DNA from: a virus | Lineage: Duplodnaviria; Heunggongvirae; Uroviricota; Caudoviricetes | IMG/VR virus record: IMGVR_UViG_2529292906_000019 | Coordinates: 1 to 44,062 of that record | Length of the DNA stretch: 44,062 bases | Strand: one strand, 5' to 3' | Shown here: positions 6,045 through 6,769 of the stretch, one piece after another | Position numbering within the stretch: the stretch's first letter is position 1 | Layout of the letters: every line of letters starts with the position of its first letter | Notes under the pieces: generated by a model | What the model was told of the DNA's origin: nothing | The model's input: only the letters and a program-made list of their open reading frames with translations | The model's database searches: none | Program-made: the position numbers and the translations under genes

Positions 6045-6416
6045 TTATTTAGCACTTGGTGGCGGAACTATAGTTTCAGCCCAGCAGCGACACTTACCGC
6101 CAGGGCAGCATTTTCCCTCACCAGGCAGGCCAGTTTTGGGCGGTCTTTTCCATCTGAACACTTTCCCATTGTTCTTAGCGCAAGCATTACAACATCCGCT
6201 ATCCCCTGCAGTATGCCACCGGAACTTAGTTGCCCCGATGTGTTCTGCGCGAAGCATATTGTATCTCGCATGTTCAGCAACGCTGCGCTTAATTCGGTTA
6301 AACTCAAAATTCCTAACAAACTGGTCATCACGTTTCTTTTTGCGGTTTTTTACAAAGCCACGAACAATCAGAAACAAAACTACGAGGATGACAGCAATTC
6401 CTGGCTCCATGGTCAT
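6045..6416 (-). CDS. membrane-anchored protein with a MuF C-terminal-like cysteine-rich domain
   Basis: 123 aa; N-terminal TM segment IAVILVVLFLIVRGFV; C-terminus ...KVFRWKRPP...GKCCPGGKCRCWAETIVPPP parallels the C-terminus of this phage's own MuF-like protein (...KFVRWDNPP...GCLPNCKCWPEIQVPPP); ATGA overlap with the upstream gene. Confidence 0.5.
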   Translation of the reverse strand: MTMEPGIAVILVVLFLIVRGFVKNRKKKRDDQFVRNFEFNRIKRSVAEHARYNMLRAEHIGATKFRWHTAGDSGCCNACAKNNGKVFRWKRPPKTGLPGEGKCCPGGKCRCWAETIVPPPSAK

Positions 6417-6769
6417 TCAACCTTCATGCAGTCGTAAGTACCAAAAATACGAGGCTCGCTCATGTTTTGGCGTACTGCTTCAGCATTGAGAATTCCTTTC
6501 CCATTGCGTTTTATGTAATCGAGGCCATACCGCTGTCCCGTGTTTTCATTCAGGACGATCCATTGCATTTTTATGTTCTCGTAATCACCCTCTTTTTTGA
6601 GAAAAGTTACCTTCTGACCATCAGGCTTAGCGCCGTTTATCCTCGGGTATCCGTCATTCTCGGATGAGGTTGAAAACACAAATGGTCCGCACTTCATGTA
6701 GTCAGAATTTTCCGCCAGTGAAGCAAAGCTAACCAATGTTAAAGAAGCCATCAAAAGTAGTTTTTTCAT
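6413..6769 (-). CDS. secreted (periplasmic) protein of unknown function
   Basis: 118 aa with an N-terminal Sec-type signal peptide MKKLLLMASLTLVSFASLA/ENS; ATGA overlaps with both neighbours. Confidence 0.55.
   Translation of the reverse strand: MKKLLLMASLTLVSFASLAENSDYMKCGPFVFSTSSENDGYPRINGAKPDGQKVTFLKKEGDYENIKMQWIVLNENTGQRYGLDYIKRNGKGILNAEAVRQNMSEPRIFGTYDCMKVE

Follow-up and report, generated by a model that had tools for sequence, protein, structure and literature searches.

The DNA analysed here, referred to as the window, is a stretch of 44,062 nucleotides that carries a temperate myophage of the SEN34/Brunovirus kind, with a baseplate of the E217/Pam3 type; its closest named relative is the Salmonella phage SEN34 (genus Brunovirus), itself a temperate myovirus (PMC5261728). 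[quoted passage not shown] The features to which the text refers are listed below; the sheath initiator, baseplate J and wedge genes lie downstream of the 4962-5159 reading frame on the minus strand, and a terminase gene is also present.

4962-5159, minus strand: small transmembrane (TM) reading frame (45-65 aa, phrog_6632) between the spike and sheath initiator genes, second cargo gene
5244-5996, minus strand: membrane-puncturing spike, flanking the hotspot downstream (N-terminal spike domain, E=8e-43)
6009-6036, minus strand: terminator-like hairpin and T-run, downstream edge of the cargo cassette
6038-6815: cassette swapped relative to the Escherichia coli GZ2408P prophage (blastn breakpoints 6037 and 6816)
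6045-6416, minus strand: mini-MuF gene, 123 aa, TM helix and Cys-rich MuF-core domain
6413-6769, minus strand: secreted small beta-barrel protein (predicted fold), 118 aa, phrog_3443, Sec leader and two conserved Cys
6766-7833, minus strand: E217 gp41-like baseplate hub, flanking the hotspot upstream
7830-8141, minus strand: plug
8138-8716, minus strand: Dit-like protein
8716-10671, minus strand: tape measure
18432-19184, minus strand: canonical MuF head protein of full length, encoded directly after the portal gene
19027-20541: portal
23674-24219: GH108 endolysin
37882-39996: 704-aa reading frame with a PDDEXK-like DUF3799 domain, preceding the RecT-family gene
39996-41051: RecT-family recombinase (PF03837)
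42297-43382: integrase

The MuF reading frame as listed opens with a TTG at 19277, some 250 nt inside the portal gene; its true start is likely the ATG at 19184 (MPKQNGRR...). The tape measure at 8716-10671 gave no match to the Pfam SLT (lytic transglycosylase) family, whereas such a match is present for several relatives that have both small genes (L005-L007).

The 118-aa gene is joined to its neighbours by 4-nt ATGA overlaps, with the hub gene at 6766-6769 and with the 123-aa gene at 6413-6416, and a 48-nt spacer, in which a strong hairpin and a T-run directly precede the ribosome-binding site of the spike gene, separates the 123-aa gene from the spike gene. These overlaps, together with a Sec signal peptide on the first product and a TM helix followed by a Cys-rich C-terminus on the second, had been reported in the first-pass annotation, and each was found on re-examination. 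A simple consensus scan of the minus strand located no sigma-70-like promoter upstream of the small genes which, being coupled to the hub, look late-expressed rather than prophage-expressed in this phage. The hairpin (6036-6009, minus strand; AAACCCGC-TCCG-GCGGGTTT followed by the T-run) resembles an intrinsic terminator placed in the middle of a baseplate operon. All nine loci compared keep a hairpin of the form AACCCGC-loop-GCGGGTTTTTT ahead of the spike gene, irrespective of their cargo, so that the terminator belongs to the slot and not to the 123-aa gene. It may set the ratio of hub to spike expression or define the point at which cargo is inserted.

The 118-aa protein begins with a typical Sec leader, MKK then LLLMASLTLVSFASLA then ENS, as read from the sequence, and belongs to PHROG 3443 (function unknown). 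Its residues C27 and C114 are conserved across homologues, and the protein is probably periplasmic and disulfide-bonded. Beyond a low-confidence leader, the AF2 model (pLDDT 76.7, from a shallow alignment) is all-beta with eight strands, predicting an 8-stranded beta-barrel and speaking for fold class only. The closest known systems include small periplasmic 8-stranded barrels such as the avidin/calycin-like proteins, the PliC/MliC lysozyme inhibitors and the T6SS immunity protein BtaiB. Assembly of virions takes place in the cytoplasm, which makes any exported protein a very unlikely baseplate component.

Relationship of the 123-aa protein to MuF

The 123-aa protein is laid out as follows.

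Residues 1-5: predicted outside
Residues ~6-22: TM helix
KNRKKKR: basic segment
Residues 44-123: Cys-rich domain

Its top hydrophobic 17-mer begins at residue 6 (mean Kyte-Doolittle value 2.8), with KNRKKKRDD behind it. The positive charge after the helix would, under the positive-inside rule, place the MuF-like domain in the cytoplasm, and the protein is probably a single-pass inner-membrane protein (N-out/C-in) with its MuF-core domain at the cytoplasmic face. This charge pattern speaks against a periplasmic pair; with a cytoplasmic MuF domain and an exported barrel, the two would act on opposite sides of the inner membrane. The same pattern bears on the proposal that the two genes encode a spanin pair (Rz/Rz1), which was rejected: the 123-aa C-terminal domain is cytoplasmic by charge, the 118-aa leader lacks a lipobox Cys, and the endolysin is encoded elsewhere (23674-24219).

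The resemblance of the C-terminal domain to that of the phage's own MuF, first noted in the bare sequence, is borne out by several comparisons. BLASTP with compositional adjustment aligns the two over 66 aa with 38% identity (E=1e-11), and Pfam Phage_Mu_F (PF04233) is passed narrowly (30.4 bits against a gathering threshold of 29.6, E=7e-7), with a match that spans only profile positions 45-107 of 112. Profile-profile alignment by hhalign of 53 members of the small family against 18 canonical MuFs returned a probability of 99.8% and an E-value of 3.2e-30 over 75 columns, pairing residues 44-123 with MuF residues 174-250. The similarity thus goes far beyond a shared amino acid composition. Against NCBIfam TIGR01641, the protein scores 23.9, below the cutoff of 39.65. 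Its other Pfam match is weak and confined to the TM segment; no PAAR profile was matched in Pfam, and the identification of the protein as a PAAR-like spike tip was discarded. The AF2 model (pLDDT 94.9) comprises helices at residues 5-39 and 46-59 and three short strands forming a small beta unit, for which fold searches of the PDB gave no meaningful match; a sequence-profile search of the PDB was likewise empty.

An exhaustive HMMER search recovered 986 cluster representatives at E<=1e-3, and the best 150 of these are overwhelmingly small proteins, mostly of 110-200 aa, with the domain at the C-terminus. They share the motif G..Y.W.t.gD..vC..C..n.GK.F.W..pP..GHPGe..CC..G.CRCyAEP, in which C109 and C111 never vary and C76 and C79 hardly do (at least 90%). 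On its sequence, the 123-aa protein falls in a family of stand-alone proteins, here called mini-MuF, that is distinct, widespread and hitherto undescribed and whose members typically have 110-170 aa. No published description of such a subfamily was found, and NCBI labels its members 'phage minor head protein'.

The homology covers the C-terminal 75-80 residues of MuF/SPP1 gp7 (PF04233; MuF1 in PMC5576092), and G..Y.W.t.gD....GK.F.W..PP..GHPG...CRC.AEP is common to both groups. Unlike canonical MuFs, which have about 250 aa or more, the mini-MuF proteins have 120-150 aa and lack the N-terminal half; the IARTE/IARDQ helix region is missing and only the C-terminal half of the domain is kept. The conserved ligand-type residues also differ, in that R205, H208, C237 and C239 are invariant in canonical MuFs (R..H...CxC) where the small family has CxxC...CxC. 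The simplest reading is that a four-cysteine zinc site would substitute for another ligand set in mini-MuF.

A TM anchor further separates the groups. A strong N-terminal TM helix was detected in 24 of 104 mini-MuF proteins and in none of 55 canonical MuFs, and these helices carry a net charge of about -0.2 before and +3.6 within the 15 residues after. An extension of membrane association to the whole family was dropped, as an N-terminal amphipathic-helix score did not separate the two groups (42/104 mini-MuF against 33/55 canonical proteins).

Genomic placement differs as well. In the survey of Jamet et al. (2017, PMC5576092), muf genes lay directly after the portal gene with about one per phage (614 genes in 611 phages). 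The mini-MuF gene departs from that rule, being located about 12 kb from the portal gene in a phage that has a separate canonical MuF; it is a second MuF-related gene of the same phage, an occurrence that was rare in the survey (PMC5576092). The view that it is an old paralogue of this phage's MuF therefore needs dividing: the age stands, and the derivation from this particular MuF does not, the protein belonging to a separate CxxC...CxC family. The finding is more general than a one-off paralogue, and sets a familiar domain family and the established logic of morons in an architecture and a context that are new.

An exchangeable cassette between the hub and spike genes

The prophage of E. coli GZ2408P (L001) is 95-96% identical to the window in the plug, hub, spike, sheath initiator and J genes, yet is without both small genes and has in their place a gene for a 230-aa lipoprotein-like product. 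The blastn breakpoints fall at the edge of the hairpin (6037) and about 16 codons before the hub stop codon (6816). In the prophage of E. coli COL60J, the interval between hub and spike holds a barrel gene together with an EACC1 ('effector-associated constant component') gene on the opposite strand (L002 3659-4009, plus strand), which suggests that the hotspot gathers parts of conflict systems. The SEN34 interval holds a truncated barrel gene and a gene for a 138-aa TM protein, and the length of the interval ranges from 373 to 2194 bp among 73 relatives. The segment 6038-6815 is therefore an exchangeable cargo cassette in a hub-spike hotspot.

The cassette also differs from its surroundings in composition: GC falls to 0.42 in the region of the small genes, and their GC3 of 0.44-0.46 contrasts with 0.62-0.65 in the plug, hub and spike genes. 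Values of dN/dS, approximate because dS is near saturation, are 0.09-0.17 for the two small genes and 0.09-0.16 for mini-MuF. Both genes are thus under purifying selection and foreign in composition to the operon. Presence or absence among near-identical phages, a base composition unlike that of the neighbours, and a terminator are all features of morons, and all occur here.

These data bear on the notion that the 123-aa gene has no function and is a decaying piece of a muf copy that arose when this phage recently duplicated its own gene. Such an origin would agree with the presence of only the C-terminal half of the domain. It is effectively refuted by the higher identity of the protein to its same-locus orthologues elsewhere (58-98%) than to the window MuF, by the family-specific CxxC ligands missing from that MuF, by the low dN/dS, and by the hundreds of members of the family.

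The occupants of the interval were surveyed in viral contigs L054-L133, which carry the 80 most similar hubs (61% identity or more). The first gene after the hub encodes the beta-barrel protein in 61 of 74 relatives, a lipobox protein (240-354 aa) in eight, another signal-peptide protein in four and an unclear product in one; mini-MuF is found in the interval in four of 73. The counts describe a near-obligatory slot for an exported protein after the hub, followed by a free slot, a regularity that we have not seen described. They also bear on the first-pass suggestion of an envelope-acting accessory pair. The accessory or exclusion character, the membrane anchor and the secreted neighbour all agree with the evidence; an obligate pair does not agree with frequencies of 61/74 and 4/73. 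By the same measure, of the two proteins only the secreted one, and this in part, resembles a standard, conserved component in related phages.

A second, smaller cargo site occupies the interval between the spike and sheath initiator genes (4955-5247), and the whole segment is absent from the GZ2408P prophage. Its phrog_6632 TM protein also occurs as SEN34_23, and a promoter-like site (TTAACA-18-GATAAT, 5247-5218) precedes its gene.

In E217, whose virion has been solved, the interval between the gp41 hub and the gp43 tip is occupied by gp42 (177 aa, L016 12595-13128), which goes unmentioned in the main text of the structure paper (PMC10329688). It was considered as a counterpart and set aside, its sequence being unrelated to either window protein.

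Genomic contexts of mini-MuF genes

The arrangement had at first seemed unfamiliar, but it recurs. The order hub, exported protein of about 113 aa, mini-MuF and spike is present in Salmonella (L004), Enterobacter chengduensis (L005), Pantoea latae (L006/L052), Pantoea stewartii (L046), a further assembly (L007) and six viral contigs, and the isolated Klebsiella phage Mulock has the same pair between hub and spike as genes 020 and 021. A prophage of Hafnia psychrotolerans (L033) carries mini-MuF between hub and spike with no barrel gene detected, and most non-enteric mini-MuF genes have no exported-protein neighbour.

Elsewhere the gene moves within the tail module. It follows the spike in L015 and, on the same strand as the tail genes, lies between the tube/chaperone and tape measure genes in L032. 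On the opposite strand, its neighbours are a 629-aa gene and the spike in L014, plug and Dit in L026 and L044, and plug and hub in Pseudomonas fungipugnans (L042), while in L019 and L041 it lies close to the tape measure gene. Copies in this reversed orientation must be served by separate promoters; promoter scans at three such loci were uninformative.

Copies were sampled with a degenerate DNA pattern that retrieves members only if they have W-R(CGN) and end in the CRC/CKC manner; the context counts therefore describe a biased sample. Three other family members lay on contigs too short for their surroundings to be read. All 14 mini-MuF copies in viral contigs lie in a tail-tip module of the E217/Pam3 type, at varying positions and with roughly six on the opposite strand. 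Two further hits in that sample were full-length, and both follow portal genes. Among species-representative genomes, tail markers occur within 8 kb of mini-MuF in 11 of 21 copies; the other ten have mobile-element or defence genes or ordinary host genes nearby. The non-tail neighbours include integrase, TrwC relaxase, TrwB/TraG coupling protein, IstB, RepA, ParA, D5-type primase, GmrSD, AbiEi and Fic, as well as the host genes for HrcA and a heavy-metal P-type ATPase, and no recurrent partner gene was found among these ten copies. In Variovorax guangxiensis (L053 3638-6436), mini-MuF immediately follows a GmrSD-type (type IV restriction) gene in the same orientation.

The shifts in position and strand, and the presence on other mobile elements, are the behaviour of mobile accessory cargo rather than of a fixed structural gene. 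Together with the N-terminal TM anchor, the non-phage contexts argue against a head-internal virion protein.

The association with a single tail type calls for another possibility to be weighed, that mini-MuF is a pilot or ejection protein of the tail tip or tail lumen, which would depart together with the tape measure and spike, lodge its TM helix in the inner membrane of the recipient and receive the DNA end with its MuF core. Every phage-borne copy was found in the tube-TMP-Dit-plug-hub-spike segment of one tail type, which would also fit a role in the assembly of that tail or in its DNA delivery; in enterics, translation of the gene is coupled to the hub operon, the gene is present in the isolated phage Mulock, and the inner-membrane ejection proteins of such myophages are called unknown in the E217 structure paper (PMC10329688). 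We nevertheless consider this role improbable, since mini-MuF is missing in a backbone of 95-96% identity and in 69 of the 73 close relatives, often lies on the strand opposite the tail genes, is found outside prophage tail modules in about half of its genomic copies and has a foreign codon composition.

The copies beside host genes raise the further possibility of a host-directed lysogenic conversion, in which an envelope process or a zinc/redox process would be altered for the fitness of the host with no involvement of other phages. A hotspot full of envelope-targeted proteins would suit such a role, as would the copies next to HrcA and the heavy-metal P-type ATPase. The homology to a phage head protein, the tight linkage to a specific tail module in phages and the want of a recurring host partner gene make it very unlikely.

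Candidate functions at the cell envelope

Several known systems provide a frame for interpretation. Gene 15 of HK97, the original moron in a tail operon, lies between the tail chaperone and tape measure genes; its product, a superinfection exclusion protein, is small, resides in the inner membrane and prevents the entry of DNA in a way that depends on the tail (PMC3594210). Like gp15, mini-MuF is a predicted small single-pass inner-membrane protein encoded in a tail operon, polymorphic for presence and atypical in GC, and the copy in L032 even sits between tube/chaperone and tape measure. In contrast to the window genes, for which no promoter was detected, gene 15 has its own promoter, and its product is of YebO-like origin; the likeness drawn here is one of architecture and placement. 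Tab is a further moron inside a late operon (PMC10884400), and SNIPE is membrane-bound and acts at the site of injection through contacts with the tape measure (PMC13190303). The 118-aa gene recalls those for T5 Llp and phi80/N15 Cor, exported proteins or lipoproteins that block receptors or entry and are encoded beside tail-tip genes (PMC3594210); lipobox proteins fill the same slot in relatives, which likens the slot to the Llp/Cor type, whereas the 118-aa protein itself has no lipobox and no detectable homology to either.

The best explanation of the evidence as a whole, to which we would give an even chance, is that both genes are swappable, moron-type cargo for which envelope-level superinfection exclusion may be proposed. 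By analogy with HK97 gp15, both proteins would take part, at the cell envelope, in conflicts between phages. Interference with an incoming tail tip or with the receptor would fall to the periplasmic barrel, and the membrane-tethered MuF core would bind the normal target of MuF, be it the portal or the DNA end that accompanies an ejected head protein, thereby trapping or misdirecting an incoming or assembling rival phage. MuF-family head components bring effectors into the host along with DNA (PMC5512222, PMC9503650), and because of this a tethered MuF core could compete for the partner of MuF. Several findings speak against this explanation: no promoter was detected and the genes are coupled to that of the hub, phage-borne mini-MuF keeps to a single tail type, and PADLOC defence models gave no match to either protein, nor to the alternative cargo proteins.

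A bolder and unlikely form of this proposal holds that mini-MuF constitutes a class of exclusion or defence proteins that mimic a head protein and capture the portal or the MuF-associated DNA end, with the exported slot as a second, periplasmic layer. A zinc-stabilised core would then stand at the cytoplasmic face of the inner membrane, where about one family member in four has a TM helix to hold it, and its gene would travel as a mobile conflict gene with the tail module and with plasmids and ICEs.

The two genes might instead serve the phage's own lytic cycle from the membrane rather than exclude rivals. The exported protein could, for example, shield progeny from inactivation by debris, as does Llp, and mini-MuF could time or position head and DNA events. 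Their site in a late operon, the ATGA coupling and the apparent lack of a promoter of their own are what would be expected of lytic functions, as is an exported-protein slot that is nearly universal after the hub, and the gene for T5 Llp adjoins that for the receptor-binding protein. We judge this reading to be quite unlikely, as unrelated exported proteins are swapped in the slot and mini-MuF also resides on non-phage elements.

Should phage exclusion prove to be the function, a mechanism based on mimicry would be added to prophage-encoded defence, and the many small non-head genes labelled 'phage minor head protein' in databases would be explained. MuF is among the commonest head proteins of tailed phages; the mini-MuF family offers a compact handle on its role, because the partner of mini-MuF should be that of MuF. 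The hub-spike hotspot, for its part, has an exported-protein slot and a conserved terminator that make it a predictable place to mine for cargo of the exclusion and defence kind in enterobacterial prophages of a widespread group. A gene for a calcineurin-like metallophosphoesterase (277-936, minus strand), which lies where the prophage in the window has its tail-fibre end, may represent further accessory cargo.
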